The position numbers and the translations under genes were made by a program. The notes below the pieces were generated by a model that worked only from the letters and a program-made list of their open reading frames with translations, was not told the DNA's origin and did no database searches. DNA of 64,000 nt from Methanomassiliicoccaceae archaeon (GTDB lineage: Archaea > Thermoplasmatota > Thermoplasmata > Methanomassiliicoccales > Methanomassiliicoccaceae), in assembly GCA_040776945.1 (NCBI GenBank), contig JAXGZN010000002.1:288001-352000 (forward strand), read 5' to 3'. Position 1 is the first letter of the stretch. Each line of letters opens with the position of its first letter. Below are positions 27,927-52,699 of this stretch, one piece after another.

Positions 27927-29117
27927 TTGAACGTCTTGGCAATAGCGACAAACTTTCCGGATCCAATACATCGTACATGGGCACCTTGGAACAAGTCATC
28001 GATTGATGCTATCGCCTCCCAGGACAATGTTACAACAATCGTGCCAAGACCAATAGCCCCTCCAATGACAACATATTACACGATTCCGAGAGTAGAGATT
28101 ACTCAATTATATACTATACATTATATGAGATTCCCATATCTATTGCCAAAGAAATTATTTTATGGTTTGACAGGAGACTTATTCAAGTATTCAGTATCCA
28201 AATACATAGCAAAATCACTTACTGATAAAACAATAGAAAGGCCTGAGGTCATTCATTCGTTTCATCCATATCCAGATGGATATGGAATGACGGATATTTC
28301 CAAAGCCCTAAATGTACCCCATGTGATTACAGTGCATAGCCGCCGCAATGTTGAATATTGCACGGCAAAAGTAGTAAGGGCTCTTATAAGAGCATCCAAA
28401 ATTATTACAGTTTCGGAGTCTCTCGTACCTTTGATAAACTCCCTAGGGATACCCTTGGAAAATATCGCTCACGTGTCTCTTGGTGTAAACCCTAATGAAT
28501 TCAAGCCCATTGAACGGACGAAATCTAAGGTAGTAGTGCCAAAATATGGCATTGGCGATGAGCGTATAGTATTATTTGTCGGACAGCTCTTGCCAATAAA
28601 GAATATTAAGGCAATAATAGAATCCATCCCGTATGTGACGAATAGATTGAAAGGCAATAAAAGCAAGGTACGATTCATAATTGTTGGTGATGGTCCTGAA
28701 AGAATGAAAATGGAAGGTCTAGCGAGTAATCTTAAAGTAACGGAATATATAACCTTTACCGGTAGGATTCCGTTTGGGGATCTTGAGCTAAAGGAATGGT
28801 ATGGCATTTCCGATATCTTTGTATTGCCAAGCTTTTCGGAAGGCAAACCTGTAGCCATATTCGAGGCCATGAGTGGTGGTTGTGCAATCATATCTTCAAA
28901 TGTCGATGGGATACCAGAGCAAGTGAAAAACGGCGTGAACGGTTATCTCATTGATCCAACTACTCCAGGAGACTTTGCTAAGAAACTGCTTCTACTACTA
29001 TCAAAAGACGACGTATTAGAAAATATGAAGAAAGAAAGCCGTAGAATCTTGTTTGATTTAGGATACACATGGGATCACTATCAAAAGAGGGTAAGGTCTG
29101 TTTACGAACAATTCTAG
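27927..29117 (+). CDS. Glycosyltransferase family 4
   Basis: IVGDGPE, 'LPSFSEG.P.AIFEAM', GIPE.V.NG.NG. Confidence 0.9.
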   Translation: MNVLAIATNFPDPIHRTWAPWNKSSIDAIASQDNVTTIVPRPIAPPMTTYYTIPRVEITQLYTIHYMRFPYLLPKKLFYGLTGDLFKYSVSKYIAKSLTDKTIERPEVIHSFHPYPDGYGMTDISKALNVPHVITVHSRRNVEYCTAKVVRALIRASKIITVSESLVPLINSLGIPLENIAHVSLGVNPNEFKPIERTKSKVVVPKYGIGDERIVLFVGQLLPIKNIKAIIESIPYVTNRLKGNKSKVRFIIVGDGPERMKMEGLASNLKVTEYITFTGRIPFGDLELKEWYGISDIFVLPSFSEGKPVAIFEAMSGGCAIISSNVDGIPEQVKNGVNGYLIDPTTPGDFAKKLLLLLSKDDVLENMKKESRRILFDLGYTWDHYQKRVRSVYEQF

Positions 29118-29139
29118 CAAACTTGGATGGTATTGATAG

Positions 29140-30261
29140 ATGGATAGACCACTGAAACTAGTAATCGTGACGACACCATTAACCGAAATATCTGAAGGGT
29201 TTGCTAAAAACTTTATCAAAATTATTGCTCAAACAGGTTCTTCGATACGATTAATTAGTGGGATTAGGGATAAGAAATATTTTTGTAAATATGTAGAGAA
29301 ATATACTGATATTTCGTACTACGCTAGATCAAAATGGCAACGCCTTTCAGGATATATTGCTTCCCAACTAATTACATCAAAGAAGTGCTTGAGCGAGGAT
29401 GCCTCATTATACATCTTTTTTCTTTCACAGACACAGTTAATTCCTATCTTCTTGATTAAAATATTTAAAAGAAAAACTCCTACCGTTTTGTTCCCTGGAG
29501 GTTCAGTCCATCTATCCTACAAACAAAGGAACGTTGGACTTTCAATCTTTTTTAATATTATGGAGAGAATTGGGTATTGTATATCGGATAATATAATCTT
29601 GTATTCCAAAAGCCAGATGTGCAATTGGCGTTTGGATAGGTATAGCAAGAAAATAGCATTTGCTCGAGAACATTTTATAGACGCAAACGAGTTTAAGATT
29701 ATTAATAGTCTGTCAGAACGTGGAAATACAATAGGTTTCGTAGGTCGCCTTAGTTCTGAAAAGGGAATACTCTCGTTTGTTGAAGCAGCCAAAGCTTTGG
29801 TATCGGAGAGAAATGATATTCACATCATTATTGCAGGATCAGGAGAGATCGAGTCGCAAATTAGAAATCAAATTAAACCAGAATACTTGGGAAAATTTGA
29901 GTTCTGTGGGTGGGTACCTCGTTCTGAGATTCCCAAATTATTGAACAGAATAAGAATTCTAGTTATACCCTCATACACAGAAGGGCTTCCTAATGTTATG
30001 CTTGAGGCTATGGCGTGCGGAACATTAGTGATAGCTACCTCAGTGGGCACGATTCCGGATATTATCAAGGATGGGGAAACAGGGTTCATATTGAAAGACA
30101 ACTCGCCAAAAACGATTAAGGAAGGCATAAGTCGGGCTATTGAACACAAGAACCAATGCGCGATTGTAGAAAAATCTCTTAGCATAATTAACAACAATTT
30201 TTCATTCGATGAGTCGGTCCGCCTCTGGGTTGAAACGCTCGCATTGTTAAAGAGAGGGTGA
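29140..30261 (+). CDS. Glycosyltransferase family 4
   Basis: GRLSSEKG, 'PSYTEGLPNVMLEAMACG'. Confidence 0.92.
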   Translation: MDRPLKLVIVTTPLTEISEGFAKNFIKIIAQTGSSIRLISGIRDKKYFCKYVEKYTDISYYARSKWQRLSGYIASQLITSKKCLSEDASLYIFFLSQTQLIPIFLIKIFKRKTPTVLFPGGSVHLSYKQRNVGLSIFFNIMERIGYCISDNIILYSKSQMCNWRLDRYSKKIAFAREHFIDANEFKIINSLSERGNTIGFVGRLSSEKGILSFVEAAKALVSERNDIHIIIAGSGEIESQIRNQIKPEYLGKFEFCGWVPRSEIPKLLNRIRILVIPSYTEGLPNVMLEAMACGTLVIATSVGTIPDIIKDGETGFILKDNSPKTIKEGISRAIEHKNQCAIVEKSLSIINNNFSFDESVRLWVETLALLKRG

Positions 30262-30265
30262 TTTC

Positions 30266-32011
30266 TTGACTGTAACTCAATCACGCCAGCATAAAATATT
30301 TTTAATGATATCATTCATCTTGGCTATAATTTCACTGATGGTCGAATCACTAAGTCTTCCAGTAACCCACTATGAAATTTCTATTTATTCTGGTATGAGC
30401 TGGACTTTTTGGTTTCTTATTTTCGCCTCAATGGCAATTGGTTTGATTGTGTTGTTTGACACTTATTTGAAAGGTAGCTCTTTGTGGTTGATTTCATTTA
30501 TTTTAATATTATTTAATATCTTCATATTGGTCATACTTCCTTATCTACGAGGCTACTATTATTTTGGTGGGGAGGATTCCTTGGTTCATATGGGGACAAT
30601 TCGCCTCATTGTAGAGGAAGGACATATGCCTATTGACTCTATCGCTGCTTTCTACCCATTAATGCATTACCAAGGATCGTTTCTTCAGATAATCTTAAAT
30701 TTACCATTAAACACAATTCCATATCTCGGCATATTCTTATATATCCTAATTTATTCATTATCATACATTATCTTATCAAGATTATTAACGCCTTCAAATG
30801 CTGGAAGGGGTCTTATCATAGTTCTTGGGTTGTTACCCATATTTGGCCTAGATACTATGAATTATTCCCCATTCGTACGGGCAATACTACTCATTCCCAT
30901 TATTATGTATCTATTCTTAAAGACGAGAAGTAATATCCACAGGTTAGAGTTCTCGTTAATCTTGCTTATCGTATTGTTATCTCTTCCTCTATTGCATCCC
31001 CTGGTAAGCATATTTTTATTCATATTGATTCTTGGATTGATTATCTCTGAACAAATCAATATTCACTTAGGTCTATTACCTCGATTGAGCATAGATCAAA
31101 AAAGTTCCAACTGGACCATTTTGATGATAGTAATCATCTCTACATTTGCATGGATTTCTCAATTCCTGTACTTTAGATATGTCGCGAATAAAATTATCGA
31201 CAACATCTTCTATGCAAATGGCCAATCTTTAGCAAAAACATACACATCAATTACTACTATTGTCCAGCCACTAGATTTACTATATTATATTCTAATAAAC
31301 TATGGTTCGTATATAATTTTATCAGTTATATCCATACACATATTCCTTTATCACATTTTTCCACTAGCGTCTAGAAGGAAATCATGGAATCCCATTCTAC
31401 TTTCCCTCTTTATCATAGCAACCATTTTTTTCTTACTGTCTAGTGTTCTCTTTATCCTGGACTTTTTGGTCGGACCTAGAACATTGAGCATCCTAGGAAT
31501 TATCCTCATATCTATCTGTGGTTTGGGCTTTTATTATTCCAGACGTAGGCAGCGGACATTAATTGTAGCCTTATTGATCATTTTAATGTTAATTCCTTCG
31601 ATATCCACTTTTTATTCATCGCCCGTATCGAAGGGAGTTGGGTGGCATTATACTGAGATGGACTTAGTTGGTGATCAGTGGGCAATTTCATCCTCAGAAT
31701 CCAACTATTTCTTATGCAATTATCGGATATGGGCTTCTTCGCAATATCTTGGCCTCAATGCGTCAATTGCGTCGACAGATATTCAGCCTCATTTTAATTT
31801 TGATGAATTATTTGAAAATCAAGATATCTCTCATGATTTGATAATTATTGACGAAAAAATGAAGGAGTCCTACCCGACACTGTTTCCAAATTATGAGAGC
31901 TATTGGAAATATTCAAAGAATGATTTTGATAATTTAATAAGAAGAGGGGACCTATCACGCGCCTATATCAATGGAGATAAACAAATATATCTAATCAACA
32001 TGCCGGTATGA
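30266..32011 (+). CDS. Polytopic membrane protein, GT-C/Wzy-like
   Basis: About 13 TM segments; 'GEDSLVHMG..YPLMH' first-loop motif; located in a glycan locus. Confidence 0.65.
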   Translation: MTVTQSRQHKIFLMISFILAIISLMVESLSLPVTHYEISIYSGMSWTFWFLIFASMAIGLIVLFDTYLKGSSLWLISFILILFNIFILVILPYLRGYYYFGGEDSLVHMGTIRLIVEEGHMPIDSIAAFYPLMHYQGSFLQIILNLPLNTIPYLGIFLYILIYSLSYIILSRLLTPSNAGRGLIIVLGLLPIFGLDTMNYSPFVRAILLIPIIMYLFLKTRSNIHRLEFSLILLIVLLSLPLLHPLVSIFLFILILGLIISEQINIHLGLLPRLSIDQKSSNWTILMIVIISTFAWISQFLYFRYVANKIIDNIFYANGQSLAKTYTSITTIVQPLDLLYYILINYGSYIILSVISIHIFLYHIFPLASRRKSWNPILLSLFIIATIFFLLSSVLFILDFLVGPRTLSILGIILISICGLGFYYSRRRQRTLIVALLIILMLIPSISTFYSSPVSKGVGWHYTEMDLVGDQWAISSSESNYFLCNYRIWASSQYLGLNASIASTDIQPHFNFDELFENQDISHDLIIIDEKMKESYPTLFPNYESYWKYSKNDFDNLIRRGDLSRAYINGDKQIYLINMPV

Positions 32012-32926
32012 TGCTATTGCCCGTTCCAAGACTTCCTTATAACGATGATTTACTGGGTTAATTATGAATGCGAGTGCCATTCGAGATACCATATTTATCA
32101 AATCTCTTCTTTGATAGAAAAATGAACTCTCGTTCAGATTGAGGTTTGATTCAGCTCTTAGAAGATGGATCAATCTTATACGGGGTTTTGATGTTCGGTA
32201 TTCCCTTCTTATTCTACGCCTTATTTCTCTTTCCATTGAAAGATTAAGTATTCTGTCGCTTGAAAGACATCGATGATTGCTACCTCGTCTAATCATTACC
32301 AACGGTTTATGAATTTCATATAGGTCATAGTCGTGTGAAAGCCTTAAATGATGCTCGCAATCTGCCGAGGTAGGTAAGTCTTCACTAAATAACATGTCAC
32401 CCCTCACATGTCTTCTCCTAAACATAACGGATGTATTTGGAATAAAATTATGGCATTCCGAAAAAATTTTATAAAATATCTCTTTTCCAGGTATCCTACC
32501 TGCTCGCAATCCGCCCCAAATCCTAAACGGTTGATCAAAATCATCAAGGAAATATGCTTGACTATATACCATCTCTATATCGTGGTTATCTAACAAGACT
32601 CGTACTTCTTCTTCTATCCTAGATGGCAGTGATAGGTCGTCAGCGTCTTGAAAGCATAGGAACTCTCCTTTTGCAGCTCGGTATGCTTGGTTATATGCTG
32701 CAGCATATCCCACACCCGTTTGTTTAAAGTATTTTACTCTATTATCTGATTTGTATTTACTAACAATATTTTGAGTGTCGTCTTCCGGTCCATATTCTTT
32801 ATGGACAATAATGATCTCAACATTTGAATAAGTTTGAGATAATATCGATTCAATCGCTCCGAGGATATATTTTTCATTATTAAACGTCGGTATTAAAACA
32901 CTAACAAGCGGGTAATAATCATTCAT
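31991..32926 (-). CDS. Glycosyltransferase family 2
   Basis: VSVLIPTFN, SILSQTY, FQDADD. Confidence 0.92.
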   Translation of the reverse strand: MNDYYPLVSVLIPTFNNEKYILGAIESILSQTYSNVEIIIVHKEYGPEDDTQNIVSKYKSDNRVKYFKQTGVGYAAAYNQAYRAAKGEFLCFQDADDLSLPSRIEEEVRVLLDNHDIEMVYSQAYFLDDFDQPFRIWGGLRAGRIPGKEIFYKIFSECHNFIPNTSVMFRRRHVRGDMLFSEDLPTSADCEHHLRLSHDYDLYEIHKPLVMIRRGSNHRCLSSDRILNLSMEREIRRRIRREYRTSKPRIRLIHLLRAESNLNLNESSFFYQRRDLINMVSRMALAFIINPVNHRYKEVLERAIASYRHVD

Positions 32927-33068
32927 GTTTCTTAGCTCAATTTTTTACGGAGATATGGTTATAAAATATTTGATTTTGTTGACCCGAGATATGGTATCTC
33001 AATCAAATGATCATTACCTCTGGTAGGTAAGTTTATACTGATTAACTCGTTTCCTCCTAACAGATAAT

Positions 33069-33677
33069 ATGGGCCATTCATTAAACGATGCATTAATTTC
33101 TCTCACATCCCTGATACATAAAAAGAGAACGATTATCCCCCGTGGGGTCAAAATTTGAAAAGACGTTCATATAGGGTATTCGGTCGAATTTGATCACGCT
33201 AATAAAGGGAGATTGATTACTATCTGTGACGAAGTAACAATTTCTAATGGGGTAAAAATTATCTGTCATGATGCATCATGCAATCGCAGAATCCATGCAA
33301 CATATGTTGCTCCAGTACTGATAGGTAAAGGCTCTTTTATCGGTGCTGGCTCTATTATCCTTCCAGGAGTTGTAATAGGACCTAATTCGGTCATTGGAGC
33401 AGGTTCTGTGGTAACTCGAGACGTTCCTGAGGGAAAAGTTGTCGTGGGTTCACCTGCTCATGTAATTGGAGACACATTGAGTCTTGATAAAAAAAGAATG
33501 GAGCAAATGGAGAAACTGAAGGTCTTTGATTGGAATATATATGGTGACCACATACTAGACGAAGAAAGATCTATCGAGTTGTATAATATCGCTGGAACTG
33601 AAAAAGGATACTTTATTGCTGAACCACACGTTGTTGCTCATTTTAAGAAAGAAAAAGATGTAACACTATCAGATTAG
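33069..33677 (+). pseudogene. Hexapeptide-repeat (LbH) O-acyltransferase with premature TGA at 33156-33158
   Basis: ...PRGVKI*KDVHIG...FIGAGSIILPGV.IG..SVIGAGSVVTRDVP; GGA>TGA explains the break. Confidence 0.8.
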
Positions 33678-33707
33678 ACTTGAAATGCATCTTCGGGAAG
33701 GAATAAA

Positions 33708-34436
33708 ATGAATAGTGACGTCTCAGATGTTGTGCCACAATATTTCAATGAAACTTCAAAATATAAAAACCGTAAGGGATTAAGGAATCCTGAGGACAAA
33801 ATCGCCCTGGATTATTTACTATCGAGGTGTAACAATACTAGTCGAGTGTTGGAAGTTGGAGGGGGGAGCGGAGCATTCCTAGACATTGTTCTTCAAAACA
33901 CCTCTGTAGATAGGGCAGTAAATTGTGAAATTGCAGCCGAAGCATATCGCGAACAAGCTAATTCACAGATTATTCTTGTCGAAGGATCCGTACTGAATTT
34001 ACCCTTTGAAAATGAATCATTTGATTGGATTGTAATGAAGAATGTCCTCCACCACCTAGTTGGAGAAACAGTGGATGATTCTAAGAGGAATGTCGAAAGA
34101 GCTTTATCTGAGCTTTCAAGGGTTAAAAGTGAAAAAGGTCATGTGGTAATAATCGAACAATACAACAAATATCGTCCATTTAGCATGATGATATTTTACT
34201 TAACAAAATTCCTTAGTATGGCTGGAATTGGATTGAATTTTTTTGAGTGCGAGAAAAATGTGATAGTCTCTTTTTTAACGCCGTTGGAAATTATAACCTG
34301 GACAAAGAAGATATTCAGTAAGTCAGAAATAGAATATGAGATACGGCCGCTTGCTGTTCGAAGGCGATTTAAGTATACTCTCTTAATGTCTAAGGTTGGT
34401 AATGTTGTGGCTTTCATCTCGCCATCAAACCAATGA
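33708..34436 (+). CDS. Class I SAM-dependent methyltransferase
   Basis: VLEVGGGSG, LPFENESFD, VLHHL. Confidence 0.88.
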   Translation: MNSDVSDVVPQYFNETSKYKNRKGLRNPEDKIALDYLLSRCNNTSRVLEVGGGSGAFLDIVLQNTSVDRAVNCEIAAEAYREQANSQIILVEGSVLNLPFENESFDWIVMKNVLHHLVGETVDDSKRNVERALSELSRVKSEKGHVVIIEQYNKYRPFSMMIFYLTKFLSMAGIGLNFFECEKNVIVSFLTPLEIITWTKKIFSKSEIEYEIRPLAVRRRFKYTLLMSKVGNVVAFISPSNQ

Positions 34437-34465
34437 TCAAGGGGAAGATGTTAGGGCACTTATGA

Positions 34466-36128
34466 CTTGACTTTGACAATGGGCTGAATTAAATATATCT
34501 CGTTTTGAACTAGACGATCGCGCTGACCTCCGCTGGAAAGCGGAGGCATGAGAAGGATTAAACGTGTCCTCAACCTCGTCTGAATTGTGTGGAAACAAAC
34601 CAAGCTGAGGACGTTCAAGCTCACGCCGAACGACAATAAATCATTTTCCATCGGCACCTCACTGATGGTCGACGATTGGTATGAATGCCTCGAACTGCCG
34701 GTCGTCATCGGCCGGCACAATGAGCGAGACGTCTCGCTCGACGCGTTGGTCCGAGGGACGCTCGCCTACAAGTTAGGAGATAACTTCTCAATCCTTCGAG
34801 CAGGCGAGTGGCTGATCCGCGAGGAAGTGCGTGAGCATTACGAGCTCAGGGAGTTCAACGTCAAGACGCTGTACCGCGCCATAGAGACGCTCGGCCAGAA
34901 TCGTGAATCGATAGTTCGAGAGCTTCAGGACCGTGTCTTGAAGCTGCTGAACTTGGAGACGACGGACGTGCTGATGGACTGGACCTCCATCCTGTACTAT
35001 GGCGATATGGCGAAGCTCGCCAAGTTCGGATACTCTCGCGACCATCGTCCGGACAAGAGGCAGGTGACGCTCGGGATCGCTTAACTAGCGCCGCCGGTGA
35101 GCGTGCCTATCTCGATGACCGTGGAACCGGGCAACGTGAACGACCAGGAGCACTTCCGACGCACTTACGATCAAGTGCGCAACGTGCTGAAAGATGGTTC
35201 GTTGATCGTCTTCGACAAGGGCGCGAATGACAAGAGGAACCTCGATGGCATTGCACTCGACCGGAACGACTACCTCACCTCGAAGAAGCTGAACTCCTCG
35301 GACGATGCCGTGTTCCAAACCTTCGACGCGAACGTCTGGGAGCTCGTTAACGAGGAAGATGGCGTCTACGCCTCGAAACGCGTGTTTCCATCGCGAGTGA
35401 ACTATTACTTCTTCTCTGAGAAGCTCAAGGAAGATTATCTTGCGTCTCGAAGACGCAAGGTCGAACGGCTCCTCCAGGAGGCACGCAGCACCCAGGACAG
35501 CCTGGATGACGGCATGGAGCTTCCGAAGCGGTTCCGGATCGACAATCCTCTCGTGAATGTGCGCTACGAGCATCAGACGAAGCTTGTTGGCATGGACGAG
35601 GAGGCGGCGCTCCGCTTCCTCCTTGACGAGGGCGTGGCCAGCCACGAAGGTTGTTTCGTTCTCACGTCCAGTCGAGATATGGCCGCGGCCGAGGCTCTAA
35701 AGATCTACCGCTCCAAGGACGCGGTGGAGAAGTTATTTCATTCGCTCAAGAGCGAGATCAAGGTTAGACCCCTCAGAGTATGGTCGCAGGACGCCGTGTA
35801 CGGCATCTTGCTCGTAGGCTTCATCGCTCAATTGATGATCTCCTTGACACGATATTTCGTTTCTCCAGTCAAGAGCGTGTCAACGAAGTTCATCTCGAAC
35901 TCGCTGCAAAAGTTGACAGTTACCTTCGTTTCGTCGAGCAACGGGCTCAGAAAGAAGATCTACTCGAACTTTGACTCGCTCAATCGAGCTGTTCTTTTCG
36001 AGTTCGTCGCGGAAACGTGACCGTTTCCGCCTCCGGACGTGGATCCGAAGGCGGTTTTAGACGGCCTCGGACGAAGCGTCAAAATCTAAAGATCTGTGAA
36101 AACGAGACGGTCAGTTGTCAAAGTTAAG
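34466..36128 (+). mobile_element. IS1634-family insertion sequence
   Basis: 14-bp TIRs CTTGACTTTGACAA / TTGTCAAAGTTAAG (1 mismatch); 6-bp TSD TTATGA at 34460-34465 and 36129-36134. Confidence 0.9.
34587..36020 (+). pseudogene. IS1634 DDE transposase with in-frame TAA at 35082-35084
   Basis: DWTS, GYSRDHRPD, GNVND, FDKG, 'YRSKDAVEKLFHSLK..RPLRVW'; both ORF halves are in the same frame. Confidence 0.88.
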
Positions 36129-36178
36129 TTATGATAGAGACATCTATCGGCATATTAGGGATTAATCCATCTGATCTT

Positions 36179-37414
36179 TTAACTTCTTTTTGGATTGAGG
36201 AATAAGATTGCCACGGCACATATTCCGTAGCTCAGTATCCACGCATATCCAATTCCAAGTATTCCTTGTGTTTCAATAAGATAATAGCTAAGACCAATTA
36301 AAAGGCAGAAATTTAATACGCCCATATAAATGATTTGCATCGAATCTTTTTTTATACGTGCAATTGAGATATATGTTTGATATATGATTAAGAGGAAGCT
36401 TGAAATGCCAAAGAGCAACAATAGCTCATAACCATTCTCTACAAATTCAGGACCCATCAGGCCGAGTAACCACTTGCCAAACAAGACATAACTAATGAAT
36501 GCCGGAGCTAGTAGGATATATGAAGTCACTATGGTTTTAAAAATGGTTCGTCGTAGGCCCTCTCCGTAACTTCCTTCAACAAATAATGAAGTACTGCAGG
36601 CAATAGGTATCATAAACATCATTGTTGCGAATGAGTACGTGATATAATACACGCCAGCAGATGGTGCACCCAATATGTTGAAAACAACAATTGGTAATGC
36701 CATTGTCGGAATAGTCATGAGCAAACCAGAAAGATAATTAGCGGTAGAGAAATGAAGAGAATATCGAATATACTCAACATCTATAGATACTATCTTTATC
36801 CGCAATATATATAGAATAATTATTGAAAAAACAACCGAAATAAAATAAGCGGCAAGATATGAAATAAATAACGCAATAATTCCGACGGATATTAGTGGAA
36901 TGATAAAAATTAATCTAGAGCCAATTAAAATTGTTTGGATAGCACTATATTGAGATTTCCTGGCTGCAATAAAAGCGCTACTAGCGGACGAAGCGATTGA
37001 TGTAATGCTAAGGTAAATTAAAAAGAGCAACTCCTCATCCATCGAAGAAAATAAGTTTGGTGAAAAAAAGTCGATGCCTAGAATGAATATTGTTCCAGTA
37101 AATACTGCACAGATGGTGGAAATAAATACTGTCGTACTGAATATTTTCGATTGATCCCCATCAGGGAAGAATCGAATCATAGAATGTTCCATCCCTAATC
37201 GTGTTATTGTAATAATTAGGGCGGCTGCAGATACAAGGGCTGTTGTTCTCCCTATCTCTTCTTGGGAATAAAACATCGCAGCTACTACCCAAAAGGCAAG
37301 ACCAAGAATAGCTGCAAGGAGTTGGGAAATCAAAATGAACATGGAGCTTTTATAGAATGAGTCATTGATGATCTTACTAATATCATCAATATGAAATTTC
37401 TTTAATTTGTTCAT
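36179..37414 (-). CDS. Oligosaccharide flippase (Wzx/MOP family)
   Basis: About 12 TM segments; 'LGLAFWVVAA.FYS.EEIG', 'GILGIGYAW'. Confidence 0.85.
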   Translation of the reverse strand: MNKLKKFHIDDISKIINDSFYKSSMFILISQLLAAILGLAFWVVAAMFYSQEEIGRTTALVSAAALIITITRLGMEHSMIRFFPDGDQSKIFSTTVFISTICAVFTGTIFILGIDFFSPNLFSSMDEELLFLIYLSITSIASSASSAFIAARKSQYSAIQTILIGSRLIFIIPLISVGIIALFISYLAAYFISVVFSIIILYILRIKIVSIDVEYIRYSLHFSTANYLSGLLMTIPTMALPIVVFNILGAPSAGVYYITYSFATMMFMIPIACSTSLFVEGSYGEGLRRTIFKTIVTSYILLAPAFISYVLFGKWLLGLMGPEFVENGYELLLLFGISSFLLIIYQTYISIARIKKDSMQIIYMGVLNFCLLIGLSYYLIETQGILGIGYAWILSYGICAVAILFLNPKRS

Positions 37415-37641
37415 TCCAGCTCGAATGAACTCTGCATTAATCCCAAAGTCACGCAATGATTCTACCAGTATATTCGCCCTTATTATTTTTCCTATAAGGA
37501 TGCTACTTCTGTTCTAGCTCCATGAACAATCAACCTCTTGTTTGTATATCAAGAATTATCGAAGTTTAAATGTCAAAGAAGCCTCCTATCTCTCAAGGAA
37601 GGGCACCGTGCTGATGCGGGCGACTTACTCGCTTCAAGAGC

Positions 37642-38451
37642 TCATGAGTTGGTTATCTCGAGCATATTTTCTTTACCCAATCTGCGCTTATGCCTGTCCT
37701 TGATGATGAATCCGGCGAGGTCGTCATGTGGAGACTCACTATTGATGGCATGAAGGATGATCACATCATCCGAAGTGTCGCTGGGATAATGGGTGTAGTA
37801 TGAGAAGCCTGCGCTCTCGAACCTCTTGAGCATCTCTGAGAACGGCTTACCAACATCGTGAATCTCCATTTCAATGCGACGTATCTTTTTCAGCTCTACA
37901 GCAGATATGTTCCACTCAGCACCCTCACAATCGCACTTTAGAAAATCGCATCTTCCTGCTTGTTTAATGAGATCAGTTAAGCTCCTGGTCTTTATCCGAA
38001 CCCTTTCGGTCATCCAGCATACCTCTTGCACCTCGCCATCACCCAGGGCATCAGGAATGACGGTTACGTTTTCGATTCCATTCAACGCTATCTGGTCCTT
38101 TATATCATCGACAAAGATAGGTTCGACGGAGAATACATGTGAAGAGAGCCTTGATGCAGGGAGGGAAAAACCGCCTATGCATCCACCGATGTCGATGACG
38201 ATATCATTTTTCTTTATATCATCCATTACGTAGTCATCAAAGACTTGGTTGACCGTGTTCAGCATCGGATGGAACCTATATTTTATTCCCTCATTAGTCA
38301 CGGCGTAATCGAACAACTTTTGGTTGATTCGGACATTGATGATATCTGTGGGATAAGGAGGGCTTATTTTCTCAACTAAATAATTTAAGATTCTGGTATA
38401 GTAATCAAACCTCCCCTTTAACGACATCAGAGGCCGATAATGATATCGCAT
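37642..38451 (-). CDS. FkbM family methyltransferase
   Basis: VIDIGGCIG, VEP, 'DFLKCDCEGAE', MEIH. Confidence 0.85.
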   Translation of the reverse strand: MRYHYRPLMSLKGRFDYYTRILNYLVEKISPPYPTDIINVRINQKLFDYAVTNEGIKYRFHPMLNTVNQVFDDYVMDDIKKNDIVIDIGGCIGGFSLPASRLSSHVFSVEPIFVDDIKDQIALNGIENVTVIPDALGDGEVQEVCWMTERVRIKTRSLTDLIKQAGRCDFLKCDCEGAEWNISAVELKKIRRIEMEIHDVGKPFSEMLKRFESAGFSYYTHYPSDTSDDVIILHAINSESPHDDLAGFIIKDRHKRRLGKENMLEITNS

Positions 38452-44365: not shown

Positions 44366-44639
44366 ATAGACACAATTACCATTAACTAATAAAAACTGAC
44401 TTATTTGGTGGATGGGTGCGAACTGAGATCAACGGGCTGATCGTTTAGATTGGATGCTTATGACGAACCGCTTGGTTCGCCATTGTCCCCCCGGCATCTC
44501 CGTCCAGGAACCACATGGTGGAGAAGATATCGTCGTCCCCTGCTTGCCCATCACATTCATCTACCTTTGTTAAATAAGGGGTTCGATAGCGGATCGATAG
44601 GAGCGTTCCGTACGAGAGAGCATCATTGAACACATCGGC

Positions 44640-45166
44640 GCGCAATATGTCGGCGATGCTCTGAAGAAGTGGAACGAGTGCGAGCTGCTGGCAGCCTTTC
44701 TTGTCCTCAATGAACGTCAGGGAAGAGAATTTTGTGACAAAGAGGTCGATCCAATGCTCCCTGACAGAGGTCCGGGCGAACGCCCTATTGCTGATATTAC
44801 CTTAAAACGTGGTCTCCACTCAACCTCGTGAGGGTGATACATCTGCCTCACATCGTGGAAGAAGTCCACAGTTTACCAACCTTTGCGAGCAAGAGGAAGG
44901 AGCTCAGGGGCCGTAAACTTGATGGCGTTTACTTCGAGCTCGAGATGGCCCAATATTTTCACAACGAGAAGCTTCCTGGTTCATTCATCCCCCCTCTGAA
45001 GGGCCAGAGACAGTGCGAATTCATCCTATGCGATAAGATCTACATCGAATGCAGCGGCGGAGCTGATCTCAACCTCACATGCCTGGAAGGTAGATGGATT
45101 GAGTTCGACGGCCGTTCTAATCTTCGGTTGAGGAGCTTGAGAGCTAACGTCACTCGCCTTTCTTGA
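44640..45166 (+). pseudogene. Probable fragmented gene
   Basis: Protein-like pieces in two frames ('WNECELLAAFLVL', 'YFELEMAQYF...CEFILCDKIYIEC'). Confidence 0.3.
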
Positions 45167-46027
45167 TCGATCTCTCATATCTCAGCAAGTGCTGGAGCCT
45201 GTTTGGTTCAACCTTCAGCTCGTTCAGCAGCCTCAGGATGTTCTGTTGCGGGCTGATATTATTCCTTGGAGGGTTCGTCTCGATTAAGCCAGAAATGTCC
45301 AGGCTAGGGTCCACCCTGATATTGTCTGGCGGCTTGGAGTAATCGGGGTGGCGGCCTATATGGTTGCATATGATCAACGTGGAAGGTGGAAAGCGCCCGA
45401 CCAGCCCTCTTATCCTTGGCGTTATTACATGGCCCACACTGGGCCCAGCCTTTCAATATCTTCCTTCACGACCATTTTTAACATCCCCTCCATGCGTACG
45501 CTGCCGTCCATGAACACGGTTCCAGGTGTTCCTACCGACTTCATGCAGATAAGGTTCAAACCGCCTACGATCTTGCCGCCCACCATTCCGGAGAACGCCA
45601 TGACTGCGGATATGTAGTCCTTGCTACCTTTCAGACAGGACAGGATCTCCGACGGGTCCATGTACCTGATCACTAGATATGGACGGTAGGCTATATTTTG
45701 GTCGATCACCGACTGTGCTAGGGCCGCTTTTTCAAGGTCGGTGGCCAAGTTGTAGGCGAACCAGTTAGCCATCCCTTCGACCATGGCCCAGTCCTCCCCG
45801 ATTTTCTTTATCATGTTGAACTCCTCCTCTGGCAGGTCCCCGTAGAGAAAGTGGTGCCATATCTCGTGCACGACCGCCATCCGGGCCTAGGCTCTGAAGC
45901 AATCCTCTCCGGGGAAGTCAAATAAACCGCTCTCAATCTTCTGAGCCCTATCCCTCAACAGCTCCGGGCACACGAAGATGTTGCCGCTCGCTCTCGACAC
46001 CTGAAGGATTATCCATCCACAATCCAT
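45150..46027 (-). pseudogene. HExxH (gluzincin-like) metallopeptidase-domain gene with in-frame TAG (45887-45889) and likely frameshift at about 45435
   Basis: 'IFVCPELL...CFRA*ARMAVVHEIWHH...EGMANWFAY'; downstream ORF 45150..45437 looks like its continuation. Confidence 0.55.
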
Positions 46028-46038
46028 CAGCAGACCGA

Positions 46039-46629
46039 ATGAAGAGATCGTACGATCCGCACCGTTCCTTCCGAACCACCACGCTAGCTATATCCATCGG
46101 CATCCTGCTGTACGCGATCATCACCATCCGCCTCAACGTCCTCATCGTCCCAGGCACCGAGCTGACCGCGGTGCGGCCGAGCGTGGTCGTGCCAATGCTG
46201 GTCGGCTTCCTGTTCGGCCCCCTGGCCGGCTTTATCACGGGGTTGGCAGGCAACGCCCTCGGCGACGCTATCACCTACGGCGAGTTCTTCTGGCCCTGGG
46301 ACCTCGGCAACAGGATCATGGGCGCGATCCCCGGTCTCGCCTATCTCTTCCTTGACGATGAGCGCCGGCTCGGCCGCACCGGTCTGCTGTGGGCGCCTCC
46401 CCTGGCCGTAGCGGCAGCGGTCATCGGCGTGGCCGTCGCCGTTCCTATTGATCTGGACCTCCAGATGACCGTGACCACCGCCTAGGACGCCTGGCGGGTG
46501 TACGTGGCGGCCGCGGCCACCGACGCCATCAACGGTGTTATTCTTCTCCCGATCCTCGTCACCGTCTACGCGCACCTCAGGCGGTTAGCGCACAGAAAGG
46601 TCTGCGGGGATGGTGAGCTATCGACCTGA
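46039..46629 (+). CDS. ECF transporter S component, interrupted by in-frame TAG (46483-46485)
   Basis: 'VRP..VVPML.GFLFGPLAGF..G..GNALGD...WPW.LGN'; the last TM 'TDAINGVILLPILV' lies after the TAG in the same frame. Confidence 0.75.
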
Positions 46630-47162
46630 GGCCTTCCGCCTGCGCACATCGACCGCAAGATAGCCGACCGCCCCCAGGCCCATGAAGGCGACCGCCAGGA
46701 GAATGTCCAGGGGGCCAACGTAGGCCATGATTGGAAGCGAGCAGGCGACCCCCAGCGCCGGAATGGTCCCCCCGAACCTCGAGACGTTGGTGCACTCCCG
46801 GCCCTGGACGAAGAAGGTGGCCGCCGAGATGCAAATCATCAGGTACACGAACGCCGGGAGGAACACCGACGCGTTGATGATGCTCTCCAACCGCCGAGGA
46901 AGGTAGCGATCAGGAGGGCGAGCACGTCCGCGACCAGCCACGCTATCAGGGAAGCGGGGCCGACCAGTGCGCTGGTCATCGATAGAATGATGAAGATTCC
47001 GGCCCCGCCGACCGGGCCGACGATGACTTCTGGCGTTCCACAACCCCCTGGCGTCCTCATACCTGGTGTCGCCGGCGAACTAGACCATTCCCTCGATCCT
47101 GGAGACGGACCGGTCGGCGGCCGCTCCATCGATGGCGACCTTGTAGCCGTCGATATCTTCAT
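46618..47162 (-). pseudogene. APC-family amino-acid permease remnant (large internal deletion)
   Basis: N-terminal 'GAGIFI....A.VGPASLIAW' joined out of frame to C-terminal 'IPALGVACSL' helices. Confidence 0.65.
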
Positions 47163-47253
47163 GGCCAGCTAGACCATGGACGTTTTGTCCAGCCAAGGGC
47201 CTTAATGAGTATCTCTGAGCGGCCACGGCGGGCTTAAGATCTCGCCTGCTCTC

Positions 47254-47448
47254 ATGCCTGCGTTCACGCGCCGCCTATCATCAGAGTGCCCCGCCGATAT
47301 AATCACTGTATCGGTGCTGGACCTCGTGCCCATCGCCGCTGTCATCGCCTTCGAGATCTTGATCATCATCCAGTTCCCGCTGTGCTCGGCGCGGCATGCC
47401 TCGAAGCTCGGCCCGATGCAGGCTATCCTTCTGAAATTTGATCGGTGA
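47254..47448 (+). pseudogene. Possible FtsX/MacB-type ABC permease C-terminal remnant
   Basis: TM followed by 'ARHASKLGPMQAI', similar to A.RA.KLDP.EAL. Confidence 0.35.
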
Positions 47449-47859
47449 TCAAGATCGAAGATGAACCCCAAATCTCACAGAGTTCAGGCAGTTCAGCAGA
47501 CCCTGCCGCATCTCATTCACATCGGCGACTCAATAGCCACTAATGGTGAGAGAACCAGGTAAACGACCTGCCGGAGCCTATATCGAGCTCGACCGTCTCA
47601 CGGCCCGATCACCGCTACCGCTATGAGCGAAAAATACTCTCTCGGTACCGACCACGATCAACAGCTGTGAGCGTCATGATCGGCACGGGCGGAGGCCGAC
47701 GGATCATTCCGGCAATGATCCACGGTTCTAAAGAGCGGGGGGCAGATGAGTGATCCTTCGGTCGAGATGGCCGGCTGCCGCAATCGTCAACCGCACGGCG
47801 AACTCGCAGACAACCTTGCGGAGCAGGTCCGCGAACGCCCTTCCAACTCATCGGACCGC

Positions 47860-48753: not shown

Positions 48754-49389
48754 TCATCCGTCGTTCATCGCGGACAGCATGAGCTTCGCCGCCTGCGCCT
48801 CGGCCGCCCTCTTCGAGGACCCCATGCCCAGGACGGCCTTCCCGTTCAGCTCGATGGCGCGATAGAAAACCCTCTTCTCGCCGAGCATCTCATCGAACCC
48901 CCTCGAGGCCGGCTTCCAGCGCTTGGCCTCCACCAGTTCCTTGAGCTCGGTCACCGGGTCCTGGTGCTCCTCCGCTCGCTGCAAGAGATCGGGAGTGAGC
49001 ACCATCTCTTCAACGAAGCTTCTGGCCGCCTCATAGCCGTTCCTCTCGAACACGGCGCCGATGGCCGCCTCCACCGCTCCGGCCAAGATCGAGCTGGCCG
49101 CCTTGACCTCCACGCCATTCCCCAGTTTCAGCTCCTTTTCGATCTCGATCCTCATTCCGACCTCGCTCAGCACCCGGTCGCTCCTCAGGAAGTTGGTCAT
49201 CACCGTGAGCCGGCCCTCCCGCTCTGAGCAGTGTTCATGAACATGATCGGCGATGGCCAGGTTCAGGACGGCGTTGCCCAAGAACTCCAGACGTTGGTTG
49301 TGCTCGCTCCCGGCGGACGCGTGGGTCATTGCGCGGCCCCACAGATCTCCGGCGGCCGCCCGCATTCGGTCAACGATGGTCTCGGACAT
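48754..49389 (-). CDS. RNase III-like protein with dsRBD, catalytic residues degenerate (copy A)
   Basis: QRLEFLGNAVL (canonical ERLEFLGD), LAGAVEAAIGA (canonical ADxxEA), GMGSSKRAAEAQAA. Confidence 0.88.
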   Translation of the reverse strand: MSETIVDRMRAAAGDLWGRAMTHASAGSEHNQRLEFLGNAVLNLAIADHVHEHCSEREGRLTVMTNFLRSDRVLSEVGMRIEIEKELKLGNGVEVKAASSILAGAVEAAIGAVFERNGYEAARSFVEEMVLTPDLLQRAEEHQDPVTELKELVEAKRWKPASRGFDEMLGEKRVFYRAIELNGKAVLGMGSSKRAAEAQAAKLMLSAMNDG

Positions 49390-49619
49390 AAAGGCCGGGA
49401 AGATATCCGTTATTTAACTGCTGTCGGCGTGAGCATCAATCGTGGTTCCCGGGAGGAAGCGCACCGAGGTCCGAAGGACCGTAGAAAAGCGGTCAACGGA
49501 CAGGCAGCGGAAGCCGCTCATCCCGGCCTATCGGCATGGCCGTCACGCCATCGTCCACCGTTGTCGCACTTGATAATGACCGGACGTCCGTTTAATACGC
49601 TCTCGCCTTCCCGGATGGC

Positions 49620-51530
49620 ATGGGCCCCGCCAGTCCCCGCTCATCGACCAGCTCGACGTACGCGCCGATCTCCGACTACGCGCCGATCGGCGACCTCCGC
49701 AGCCTCGCGCTGGTGTCCAGGGACGGCTCCATCGACTGGTGCTGCTTCCCCCACTTCGGTTCGGGCAGCGTCTTCGCGGCCCTGCTGGACTCCAGGAAGG
49801 GAGGACGCTTCAAAGTGTCGCCCTCGGCTCCCTCGCTCTCGGAGCAGAGATACATCGACTCCACCAATGTTCTTCAAACTGTCTTCACCACTTCTTCCGG
49901 CTCATTATGCGTGACGGACCTCATGCCCCTGCGCGGCGACCTCGAGGAGGAGACCGACGGCCCGCACCAGATCCTCCGCCTGCTGTCGTGCGACGACGGA
50001 GAGATCGATATCAGCGTCGAATGGTCCCCGCGCTTCGACTACGCCCGGCGGCCGGTGCGCATGGAGCGCGTGGCCGGAGATTGGATCGCCACCGGGGGCG
50101 ACGAGCGCATGGTGCTGCACGGCCTGGACCGCGGGACGGTCGAGAACGAGCTCGGTCCGGTGCTCCGCGCTTCGATCCGCCTCCGGGCGGGGGAGAAGCT
50201 TCCCCTGATGGCGAGGTGGGAGCCGGCGGCCTCCGAGCCCGGTCCGAGCTTCCCCACGGCGGAGGAGGCCGGCGACATGATCGCGGAGACGGTCGAGGCC
50301 TGGAGGTGCTGGGCGGCGCGCTGTCCTGCCGGCCGGATCGATTGGCGGCTGATGCCCCACCTGGTCCGATCCGAGCTGGTGCTCAAGCTTCTCACCTACT
50401 CGAAGACCGGGGCCATCGTCGCCGCACCGACCACATCGCTTCCCGAAGCGATAGGCGGCGTCCGCAACTGGGACTACCGCTTCGCGTGGATCCGCGACGC
50501 CTCGCTCACCGCGCACGCCCTGATATCGCTGGGACACCACCGCGAGGCGTTCGAGTTCCTGTGCTGGATCGAGCGCACGTCGAAGGCCTGGGGAAGGCGG
50601 GACCGCGGCATCCATATCCTCTTCGGGGTGCACGGCGAGGCCGAGCTCGAGGAGATCGAGCTCGACCACCTCGAGGGGTACAAGGGCTCTCGGCCGGTGC
50701 GAATCGGCAACGGGGCGTATTCCCAGGTCCAACTGGAGAGCTTCGGGGAGGTGCTCAACATCGCCTGCGAGCTCGTGGACCGCGGCATCAGCCTGTCGAA
50801 GGACCTCCAGGACTTCCTCGTTTCCGTCGCGGACATGGCCTGCGCGTCGTGGCAGGAGCCGGACCAGGGGATCTGGGAGATCAGAGGCGAGCCGAAGCAC
50901 TACGTGTACACAAAGGCAATGATCTGGATGGCTCTCGATAAGGCGGTCCGATTGCACCGCGCGTGCGGATGGCGAAACGACGTCCGGCGGTGGACCGCGG
51001 TGCAGGAGAAGGTTAAAGCGGAGATCCTCGACCGAGGCTACGATCCGGAACTGGGGAGCTTCGTGCAGTCCTATGGCTCCAAGGAGCTGGACGCCGCGAA
51101 CCTGCGCCTGCCGCTCATGGGACTCCTGCCTACCGACGACATCCGCGTGCAGGGGACCATCGACCGCACCATGGAAAAGCTGACGGAGAACGGACTGGTC
51201 TACCGATACCTCAACGATGATTCCTTCCCCCAGGGCGAGGGCACGTTCGCGCTGTGCACCTTCTGGCTCGTCGACGCGCTCGCTCTCTCCGGCCGCATGG
51301 ACGAAGCGAGGGCGATCTTCGAGAACGTGGTCAACCTGGGCAACCACGTCGGCCTGTTCGCCGAGCAGTACGACGCCGCCACCGGCGAGGCCCTTGGTAA
51401 CTTCCCGCAGGCGTTCACTCACGTCGGGCTGATCAACAGCGCCGTGAACCTCGCTCGAGCGGAGAGCCTCGGCGCGCCCGTCCCGGTGAAGGTGCCGGAG
51501 CCCAGGGTGGAGGCCACTCCGCCGGTGTGA
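49620..51530 (+). CDS. Glycoside hydrolase family 15 (trehalase/glucoamylase-like)
   Basis: DYAPIGD, GSIDW.C.P.F, AAPTTSLPE..GG.RNWDYR..WIRD, GIWEIR, GNFPQAFTH. Confidence 0.93.
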   Translation: MGPASPRSSTSSTYAPISDYAPIGDLRSLALVSRDGSIDWCCFPHFGSGSVFAALLDSRKGGRFKVSPSAPSLSEQRYIDSTNVLQTVFTTSSGSLCVTDLMPLRGDLEEETDGPHQILRLLSCDDGEIDISVEWSPRFDYARRPVRMERVAGDWIATGGDERMVLHGLDRGTVENELGPVLRASIRLRAGEKLPLMARWEPAASEPGPSFPTAEEAGDMIAETVEAWRCWAARCPAGRIDWRLMPHLVRSELVLKLLTYSKTGAIVAAPTTSLPEAIGGVRNWDYRFAWIRDASLTAHALISLGHHREAFEFLCWIERTSKAWGRRDRGIHILFGVHGEAELEEIELDHLEGYKGSRPVRIGNGAYSQVQLESFGEVLNIACELVDRGISLSKDLQDFLVSVADMACASWQEPDQGIWEIRGEPKHYVYTKAMIWMALDKAVRLHRACGWRNDVRRWTAVQEKVKAEILDRGYDPELGSFVQSYGSKELDAANLRLPLMGLLPTDDIRVQGTIDRTMEKLTENGLVYRYLNDDSFPQGEGTFALCTFWLVDALALSGRMDEARAIFENVVNLGNHVGLFAEQYDAATGEALGNFPQAFTHVGLINSAVNLARAESLGAPVPVKVPEPRVEATPPV

Positions 51531-51835
51531 TGCTCTATTATCTCCTTCCGAGGGACCAGTGAACGGAAGGTGAGAGGGATCATACGCTCAAATGGCGTCA
51601 CCGCACAATGGAACTTTCAACGGGGCGAGGCTCCGCCGGACCTTTTATGGACCGGAAGGGGCGACGCCTTCAGGACGAAAGATGCAAAACGATGTCCTCA
51701 AGTGGATGACGGAATCCCATCCCGAGCGCGGGCAGGTCAGGAAGCCGTTCCTGTGCGCTCGCGACCACGTCGGCGTGGGTTGGTGCGAGCGGTGCGGCAG
51801 CCGGTCGAGCTCCAGTGCCCGCGTGGCCCCGACCA

Positions 51836-52480
51836 TCAGCTCGAGAATGGATCGATGATGCGGTCCAGGAGCATCTGGGATGCCTGAGCTTGGGCCTTCC
51901 TCTTGGAGGGCCCCCGGCCCATGAAGCCCACGCCCTCGATTTCCAGGCCATGGAAGAACACCCGCTCTCCGTCGATGACCTCTTCGTACGCCACGACCCT
52001 GGGCTGTAGCGGGCTCCCGTCGAACGCCTCCCGGATGATGGCGATCGGATCGGGATCGTTCTGCGCGCGCTCCAGTCTCTCGTCGGTAAACACCGCTTCC
52101 TCCATGAAGCCCTTGGCAATCTCGTAGCCCGACCTCTCGAGCACCGCGCCGATGACCGCTTCCATGGTCCCGGCCACCATCTCGTCCTCCAGCCTGCCGT
52201 CCCTGGGCGGCACGAAACGTACCGCCGCGTCAAGCCCAATCGCTCTGCCGGCCTCGCACAGTGTATCTTCGCATCGCAGGATGTCAAAGATCCTCGTCAG
52301 CTGCTCCCTCTTTCCCCAGAACCGGTGGTACAGCAGATCGGCGAGAGCAAGGTCCATCGCTCCGCCTCCGAGGAACCTCAGGCGCTGGTAGTAATCGTCA
52401 CCGAAAGAGGGGTGGACAGTGGCGCGGCCCCAGAGGTCTCCGGCGGCCGCGCGCATGCGGTCAATGACGTTCTCGCTCAT
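51836..52480 (-). CDS. RNase III-like protein with dsRBD, catalytic residues degenerate (copy B)
   Basis: QRLRFLGGGAM, VAGTMEAVIGA, GRGPSKRKAQAQA; shares DRMRAAAGDLWGRA with copy A. Confidence 0.85.
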   Translation of the reverse strand: MSENVIDRMRAAAGDLWGRATVHPSFGDDYYQRLRFLGGGAMDLALADLLYHRFWGKREQLTRIFDILRCEDTLCEAGRAIGLDAAVRFVPPRDGRLEDEMVAGTMEAVIGAVLERSGYEIAKGFMEEAVFTDERLERAQNDPDPIAIIREAFDGSPLQPRVVAYEEVIDGERVFFHGLEIEGVGFMGRGPSKRKAQAQASQMLLDRIIDPFSS

Positions 52481-52699
52481 AGAGGCCGTGCAATAAATTA
52501 TCGTTTATAATGGATATTGATATGATAATCGATTCTGGTTCTGAGGAAGGCGACGAGGCGGTCCGGTCCAGAAAGGGACGGAAGGACCGGATGAGGATGG
52601 GAGGGGCCACATTGGGGCCGCTATCGCCATCATCGGCATGGCGCCCCGGACCGGTTGCCCGGCGGGGCACGGACGCGGCCCTATCTGTTGAGCGCCTCC

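Follow-up and report, generated by a model that had tools for sequence, protein, structure and literature searches.

Bacterial class 1 RNase III (Rnc; structures 7r97, 2ez6, 2nug, and 1o0w) joins a single RNase III domain to a double-stranded RNA (dsRNA)-binding domain (dsRBD) in a polypeptide of approximately 210 to 225 amino acids. In Archaea, RNase III is described as being sporadic or even absent (PMC3867540 and PMC8708148), and the handling of dsRNA by these organisms is an acknowledged open question (PMC3867540). Here, we describe two genes, designated A and B, located in a 64,000-nucleotide stretch of DNA (the window; contig 2, positions 288001 to 352000) from the genome of a Methanomassiliicoccaceae archaeon (working label G000; 2.17 Mb in 2 contigs, 99.84% complete), whose products have the fold and architecture of Rnc but a degenerate metal-binding site. 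We suggest, with a probability of roughly 0.6, that A and B are ancient paralogs within a pseudonuclease clade of the class 1 RNase III type and that they bind dsRNA while cleaving it barely or not at all.

Natural RNase III proteins that lack catalysis and act by RNA binding have a precedent (PMC3867540), and the known examples are eukaryotic or organellar: RNC1, a mitoribosomal protein, and the trypanosome KREPB proteins. The RNase III domains of maize chloroplast RNC1 are catalytically silent, and the protein acts by binding RNA (PMC3867540 and PMC8708148); unlike A and B, it carries tandem RNase III domains, resides in a eukaryotic organelle, and functions in group II intron splicing, and we liken it to A and B by description only. 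KREPB6 to KREPB8 of Trypanosoma brucei are noncatalytic RNase III paralogs maintained by selection beside other RNase III paralogs (PMC9508840); they pair with catalytic KREN proteins and carry zinc fingers, whereas G000 contains no catalytic partner for A and B. Chain c of the mitoribosomal large subunit (9hch and 7o9m) has an RNase III domain and a dsRBD fold and serves as a structural RNA-binding protein; Foldseek relates it to A and B with E values of 1e-9 to 1e-8, but at 16 to 18% identity, and it is a subunit of a eukaryotic organelle ribosome, whereas A and B have no link to ribosomes here. We take this chain to be mL44, and an ortholog from another genus of the same family (genome G078) matched PF22935, the mL44 endonuclease domain, weakly (26.6 bits; cutoff, 27). 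Among the open-access papers covered by our literature search, no archaeal or other prokaryotic pseudo-RNase III was described.

Architecture and active sites of A and B

A preliminary description of this DNA had reported two full-length RNase III-dsRBD open reading frames (ORFs) on one strand with a GH15 gene between them, and this arrangement was recovered, with the GH15 gene on the opposite strand (Table 1). The two proteins share 81 of 210 aligned residues (39%) without a single gap (E = 5e-56). Their membership in the RNase III superfamily is clear from PF14622 (76.4 bits for A and 56.1 bits for B; cutoff, 35), and PF00636 gave 51.3 bits for A and 26.0 bits for B, the latter slightly under the cutoff of 27. 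Neither protein reaches the TIGR02191 equivalog cutoff for Ribonuclease III proper (166.25 bits), with A scoring 120.5 and B scoring 64 bits individually and 119.9 and 63.5 bits, respectively, in a genome-wide search. Pfam dsrm captures the C-terminal region poorly, reaching 21.3 bits in A (cutoff, 23) and giving no match in B, although an ortholog from g22, a genus in another family, exceeds the cutoff at 35.5 bits. The AlphaFold models (pLDDT values of 89.9 for A and 88.4 for B) contain a C-terminal alpha-beta-beta-beta-alpha domain at residues ~145 to 209, the alignments of both proteins to Protein Data Bank (PDB) chains extend through this domain, Foldseek ranks the full-length RNase III proteins of E. 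coli and Aquifex first, and the motif columns conform; these results show that both A and B hold a C-terminal dsRBD despite the weak or absent dsrm match, and neither is of the Mini-III type, which consists of the RNase III domain without a dsRBD.

The Rnc proteins of E. coli, Aquifex aeolicus, and Thermotoga maritima are the best matches of A and B in both sequence and Foldseek comparisons, and they have in common with A and B the signature helix xRLxFLGx and the dsRBD motif GxGxSKKxAE, which is intact in B in the form GxGxSK[KR]xA. The differences from Rnc are the loss of D45 and D114 (and, in B, also of E41), TIGR02191 scores under the cutoff, a clade-specific arginine (R69 in A) where Rnc has valine, an archaeal host, and the lack of the era/lepB-type neighborhood that is typical of bacterial Rnc.

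Residues were equated by aligning both proteins with HMMER to chain 7r97_A (E. coli RNase III), and E. coli numbering is used below unless stated otherwise. In this alignment E38, E41, D45, E65, D114, and E117 correspond to Q32, E35, N39, E76, G104, and E107 in A and to Q32, R35, G39, E76, G104, and E107 in B; the substitutions listed in the preliminary description (E38Q, D45N, and D114G in A; E38Q, E41R, D45G, and D114G in B; E117 kept in both) are therefore correct. The two Mg2+ ions of Aquifex RNase III are bound by E40, D44, D107, and E110 (PMC3867540). Only two members of the metal-ligand quartet E41/D45/D114/E117 are retained in A (E41 and E117) and only one is retained in B (E117). Engineered Aquifex D44N and E110K/Q proteins and E. 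coli E117 mutants lack a ligand and reportedly retain dsRNA binding; A carries the D44N change naturally, at N39, but these mutants each carry a single laboratory change, whereas two to three ligands are naturally missing from A and B, a state that has long been conserved. Given the joint loss of D45 and D114, normal catalysis by A is unlikely to judge by its residues, and with the additional E41R and D45G changes, it is very unlikely for B. E. coli D45 mutants are reportedly inactive in Mg2+; our literature search on D45N in RNase III found no paper.

The same pattern extends across the clade to which A and B belong, as seen when 23 clade rows were compared by column with 102 canonical relatives bearing D45. 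Among the acidic positions, D45 and D114 are present in none of the 23 rows, E38 in 12, E41 in 19 (G, K, or R in the other 4), E65 in 14, and E117 in all 23. The columns of the signature helix (F36, L37, and G38) are conserved in the clade, as are those of the dsRBD (L149, E151, G188, G190, S/T192, K193, K/R194, A196, E197, and A200), the latter at approximately the canonical level. The arginine at A:R69 is invariant (23/23) and specific to the clade; of the 102 canonical rows, 95 have valine in this column. A salt bridge from R69 to E107 of A, occupying the site of the metal, would account for the invariance of the two residues.

Distribution, ancestry, and selection of the clade

With A as the query, homologs were detected in 56 of 121 sampled genomes of the order Methanomassiliicoccales but in 0 of the 10 other congeneric species. 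The best matches came from G078 and six g22 genomes, all of which read NERLEFLGN with G or T at D114, whereas the remaining members of the order read ERLEFLGD ... AD..EA. A profile built from 16 clade sequences behaved bimodally over 261 genomes of the order, scoring 294 to 331 bits in 8 genomes (G000, twice; G078; and the six g22 genomes) and no more than 144 bits elsewhere. Searched against 1.84 billion representative proteins, it returned 23,609 matches at an E value of ≤1e-3; the ten full-length top matches (182.6 to 297.4 bits) all have N45 with G, T, or R at D114, three more top-ranking representatives of 130 to 167 amino acids are fragments, and the next full-length single-domain match, at 147.6 bits, has D45. 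A search of 5.8 billion clusters yielded intact orthologs of A at 95, 77, 63, 58, 59, and 56% identity, with Q38 and G114 in all and N45 in all but one (T), together with only two relatives of B, namely, P0007 (89% identity) and P0183 (48% identity). The ESM Atlas returned only generic bacterial RNase III clusters. Alignment within the order, a check that had been proposed with the preliminary description, showed D45 and D114 to be absent throughout the clade.

In a 57-row tree, the N45 clade (26 rows) is monophyletic with support of 100/98, and within it a 10-row subclade (100/98) holds the lineages of both A and B; E38Q is common to all 10 rows. This subclade splits into a B side, with P0183 branching before B and P0007 (99/91), and an A side of seven rows (96/87), and the branch leading to B and P0007 has a length of 0.87. 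Since D45N and the loss of D114 are found clade-wide, across three genera and metagenome proteins, they predate these genera, and since E38Q is common to the subclade that contains both lineages, it predates the split between A and B; the suggestion that erosion of the active site preceded the duplication is borne out. The E41R and D45G changes arose on the long branch to B and P0007. Two side observations concern genomes outside the clade. A same-genus genome without the gene (G066; contig 4, 285047 to 285247) contains a possible relic, in which 67 residues match the dsRBD part of the profile (E = 1.5e-7) with one TAA between them, but which gave no match in tblastn searches with A or B, and two genomes of genus g29 (G118 and G112) have canonical-looking RNase III domains inside frames of 578 to 647 amino acids, which may be fusions or frames with missed upstream starts.

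Selection for a function, as had been proposed for both copies, is shown for the clade and is indirect for A and B. Six intact g22 orthologs gave Nei-Gojobori dN/dS values of 0.12 to 0.24 in 15 of 15 pairs, including 0.16 (dS of 0.54) and 0.15 (dS of 0.86) in the least saturated pairs, and a neighboring g22 gene gave similar values, of 0.10 to 0.18. In another g22 genome (G116; contig 117, 10903 to 11484), the clade gene is broken by four TGA codons, one TAA codon, and at least three frame changes beside an intact upstream metallophosphoesterase gene, so decay becomes visible once constraint has been lost. A and B have diverged without stops or frameshifts, as noted before: both frames are open and align without gaps at a divergence (pN of 0.38 and pS of 0.525) at which synonymous sites are saturated, for which reason we regard the duplication as being ancient, and their orthologs are intact; these features suggest that A and B are themselves under selection. 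In a neutral simulation of 1,000 runs that allowed substitutions only and ignored indels (the alignment of A and B contains none), no stop arose in 1.4% of the runs at the divergence between A and B, 3.4% at that between B and P0183, and 42% at that between B and P0007. Over the 33 columns conserved in at least 18 of 20 non-B rows, A departs at 1 and B departs at 10, five of them on the signature helix; all 10 are common to P0007, from which B differs at 23 positions, mostly conservatively, 2 of which fall in these columns. A scan of metagenomes for ortholog DNA with a generic pattern gave, among the matches listed, only canonical RNase III loci of 30 to 40% identity, and a first contig-level genome scan with A as the query gave no match. 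DNA run X14 differs from G000 by 1 base in 4.1 kb, which is not enough variation to test selection.

The first 21 codons of A (49389 to 49327) and B (52480 to 52418) stand apart in encoding peptides that are 81% identical, compared with 39% overall, and the motif DLWGRA is common to A, its nearest orthologs, B, and the 89% relative of B, other clade members having LWEQA. Recent gene conversion was considered and rejected, as identical codons number 11 of 17 in this segment and 43 of 81 among the identical residues overall, against 40.4 expected from local codon usage (third-position GC content, 0.82 to 0.86). This pattern is indistinguishable from constraint at the amino acid level, and the similarity may stem from either coevolution or old gene conversion.

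The N45 signature is not confined to this order. A DNA scan for N-[EQ]-R-L-E-F-L-G-N in one genome of each of 185,579 species gave 101 stretches, from which 80 loci were taken and 55 ORFs with the motif were extracted. Six of these belong to the Methanomassiliicoccales clade (295 to 315 bits), 34 form a separate group of ~258 amino acids, mostly from Methanoculleus/Methanomicrobiales and including cultured species (scoring 68 to 88 bits with the clade profile), a single protein from Thermoplasmata occupies an intermediate position (EENEGE; 103 bits), and 8 are fragments or weak matches (at most 42.5 bits). The Methanoculleus-type proteins share with the clade an archaeal host and the signature NERLEFLGN but differ in being longer, in keeping E38, E41, D114, and E117 (the E65 column being E or D, with E in 13 of 34), and in co-occurring with domain-only paralogs, of which three Methanoculleus genomes carry 1 to 3. 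In a quick tree they formed their own clade, which was not placed beside that of the Methanomassiliicoccales, but an approximately unbiased (AU) test did not reject joining the two, the joined tree being better by 1.10 log-likelihood units (p-AU of 0.534). Our literature search on these proteins found no paper. The series running from canonical through N45, N45 with G/T114, and added Q38 to added R41/G45 reads as a stepwise erosion, the direction of which we infer. A few bacterial proteins also have N45, including three cyanobacterial ORFs from metagenome-assembled genomes (317 to 320 amino acids) with D114 replaced and K at E117; placed on a very long branch, they are candidates for a bacterial pseudo-RNase III.

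Binding, slow cleavage, or decay

In the explanation that we favor, A and B would dimerize in the manner of RNase III, by way of the conserved F36/L37/G38 of the signature helix, and the two dsRBDs would clamp approximately two turns of dsRNA, with no hydrolysis or, in A, with very slow hydrolysis. In an organism devoid of a dsRNA-specific nuclease, candidate roles for such binders are the protection, marking, chaperoning, or presentation of duplex RNA, for instance precursor stems or sense/antisense pairs, and the 10 departures of B from clade-conserved columns could reflect a specialized second subunit or a second specificity. An RNase III fold, a degenerate site, and purifying selection, the marks of a pseudo-RNase III, a class defined by function and not by sequence, are all found, with selection measured in the g22 orthologs and indirect for A and B.

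A number of findings weigh against this explanation, and several of them would suit an attenuated but real nuclease, an unlikely but credible alternative in which the N45 clade, including A, cleaves slowly or with Mn2+ through E41/E117 (with E38/E65 where present), acting as a low-turnover or more selective RNase III with B as its noncatalytic partner. The Aquifex D44N protein cleaved RNA during crystallization, which indicates residual activity (PMC3867540). Every clade row has E117, the glutamate that bridges the metals, and E41 is retained in A as in most clade rows; A and the majority of the clade may therefore have an activity that is weak, depends on Mn2+, or uses a single metal. D114 is present in 74 of the 102 relatives bearing D45 and replaced in 28, so its loss weighs less than that of a universal residue, and the Methanoculleus group, which may form a joint clade with that of A and B, combines N45 with five other intact acidic positions, which suggests that N45 can be a working state. 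Against slow cleavage stand the joint absence from all 23 clade rows of both direct ligands (Aquifex D44 and D107 [PMC3867540]), the drift at E38, E65, and E41, which resembles relaxed catalytic constraint, and the state of B, with one ligand of four and an arginine at E41. The term "catalytically dead" used in the preliminary description is thus safe for B but, given the residual activity of Aquifex D44N, too strong for A. Other findings bear on function of any kind: the saturation of synonymous sites makes the pN/pS ratio of A and B unusable as a measure of selection; the clade gene is present in only 2 of 24 genomes of the family and in 0 of 10 other genomes of the genus, a patchy distribution indicative of a dispensable function; and contigs from RNA libraries cover B and the GH15 gene but not A, with DNA carryover possible. 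In a further alternative, B (or A and B alike) would be a remnant without function that has so far escaped a stop, the lineage being able to dispense with the clade gene; this would fit the absence from 22 of 24 family genomes and the pseudogene in G116, as well as the long branch to B and P0007, the scarcity of B-lineage proteins (two others in 5.8 billion clusters), and the 10 departures of B compared with 1 in A; the 0.42 probability of no stop between B and P0007 means that recent constraint on B is not demonstrated. We nevertheless consider decay improbable, as all 10 departures are common to an 89% ortholog and the 23 later differences are mostly conservative, the frame of B is open and aligns without gaps where divergence is saturated (P of ~0.014 to 0.034 for substitutions alone, with indels ignored), its model is confident (pLDDT of 88.4), its dsRBD motif is intact, RNA-library contigs from two studies are 100% identical to it, and an upstream element is conserved between A and B.

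A dominant-negative effect on a canonical RNase III partner was also among the possibilities raised in the preliminary description, to which may be added a heterodimer with a KREPB-like subunit and a single remaining active site, which would be a nickase. RNase III is dimeric, pseudo-RNase III partners exist in trypanosome editosomes (PMC9508840), and the genome contains two further domain-only RNase III-like ORFs, but the idea finds no support, because canonical RNase III is lacking from G000 and from the five other carrier genomes tested. Searches with TIGR02191 and PF14622 at E values up to 10 found four RNase III-fold places in G000, namely, A, B, and the two domain-only ORFs, and the complete E41/D45/D114/E117 quartet is present in none of the four (genome completeness as given above). 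The clade gene is the sole significant RNase III domain in all five of the other carriers, so the pairing with a competent paralog that characterizes the KREPB proteins is found in none of these genomes, and same-genus genomes carry the domain-only paralogs without A and B; an active partner is accordingly very improbable. The domain-only ORFs, mini C (156 amino acids; contig 1, 964691 to 965158) and mini D (144 amino acids; contig 1, 699847 to 700278), have degenerate sites, reading A38/A41/D45/E114/E117 and (P or G)38/R41/E45/E114/E117, respectively, and are a second and a third kind of noncanonical RNase III-fold protein in the family. Their motifs (LANLGD...GEAVEA in the 156-amino-acid ORF and LRVLGE...GERFEQ in the 144-amino-acid ORF) are conserved in 4 of 10 same-genus genomes, a fifth has a split copy of the longer ORF, and relatives occur in genus g3.

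Locus context and significance

Table 1. Features of the A/B locus, with positions numbered within the window
Feature	Position	Strand	Description
Gene A	48754..49389	-	211 amino acids, ATG start; RNase III domain ~16 to 132, dsRBD ~145 to 209
A codons G104 (D114) to E107 (E117)	49069..49080	-	Placed by alignment
A signature helix motif N31-Q-R-L-E-F-L-G-N39	49273..49299	-	Canonical form NERLEFLGD
TTAAATAA box	49410..49417	-	-28 to -21 of the A ATG; possible archaeal TATA box
GAACCACGATTGAT upstream element	49435..49448	-	-59 to -46 of A; common with B
GH15/trehalase-like gene	49620..51530	+	636 amino acids; between A and B, opposite strand; context only
Gene B	51836..52480	-	214 amino acids, ATG start; architecture as in A; more derived paralog
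B signature helix motif Y31-Q-R-L-R-F-L-G-G39	52364..52390	-	Placed by alignment
ATTATAAA box	52504..52511	-	-31 to -24 of the B ATG; possible TATA box
GAACCAGAATCGAT upstream element	52528..52541	-	-61 to -48 of B; common with A

TATA tracts had been reported approximately 25 nucleotides upstream of both genes; A/T-rich boxes are present there (Table 1), and they may serve as promoters, as a leaderless archaeal mRNA would have its TATA box at about this distance. Farther upstream, the pattern GAACCAnnATyGAT has two matches in the 2.17-Mb genome, one upstream of A and the other upstream of B, and may represent a common regulatory element of the two genes; because it was derived post hoc from those two sites, it is a lead only. 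The sequence CGGCCTyTATG at the start codon is also common to A and B.

Further genes at the locus are one for an Fe/Mn superoxide dismutase, downstream of A, and a URO-D/MtaA-like gene, upstream of B. Orthologs of the GH15 gene occur in two same-genus genomes (G037 and G075; 72 to 74% protein identity) without A or B nearby, and the gene itself falls far under the cutoff of the archaeal trehalase TreH1/TreH2 models (366.8 versus 820 bits). In g22, a co-directional gene for a calcineurin-like metallophosphoesterase of ~270 amino acids, duplicated in some genomes, lies ~110 to 130 nucleotides upstream of the clade gene in five of five loci; it was considered as an obligatory partner and rejected, being absent from G000 and G078 and intact beside the decayed copy in G116. 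The upstream genes in G078 encode enolase and Usp, and no neighborhood of the clade gene is conserved across genera. A defense role was likewise set aside after PADLOC-DB assigned no family to A, B, a 139-amino-acid upstream ORF, or the g22 metallophosphoesterase, and Rfam gave no family at the gathering score between 44 and 56 kb of the window. Elsewhere in the window, long ORFs are scarce and short, overlapping ones numerous in the ORF list for positions 44400 to 47600, consistent with an earlier remark on degraded genes, and positions 28001 to 38000 look like foreign or mobile DNA, with a GC content of 0.36 to 0.39 in four of five 2-kb bins and 0.50 in the other, between flanks of 0.55 to 0.67.

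Metagenomes from digesters and sludge, sampled in several studies, contain the organism. RNA-library contigs from two studies match B (X15, 51951 to 52121; X16, 52140 to 52397), and those from three studies match the GH15 gene; such contigs carry no information on strand or level, and the missing cover on A is not evidence of its silence.

What is new here is a conserved archaeal clade that has the dsRNA-binding apparatus of RNase III without its metal ligands, and the genomes that hold it lack canonical RNase III; the four RNase III-fold proteins of this organism all lack a complete catalytic site. As a natural experiment, the clade can separate the RNase III residues used for binding and dimerization from those used for catalysis, and as its members are small and soluble-looking, they offer a tractable entry into archaeal dsRNA biology. 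Annotations of "ribonuclease III" in the Methanomassiliicoccales, and possibly in Methanoculleus, may be functionally wrong. A bolder and doubtful proposal, for which the stepwise series described above is the evidence, is that methanogens repurposed a horizontally acquired RNase III as a cleavage-free "reader" of dsRNA, represented here by a two-subunit A/B form with co-conserved promoters; in it, the former active-site groove may have gained a novel function that needs no metal, marked by the invariant residues E117 and R69, the latter specific to the clade. If the proposal were true, the archaeal proteins labeled RNase III in these lineages would mostly be RNA-binding regulators rather than nucleases.

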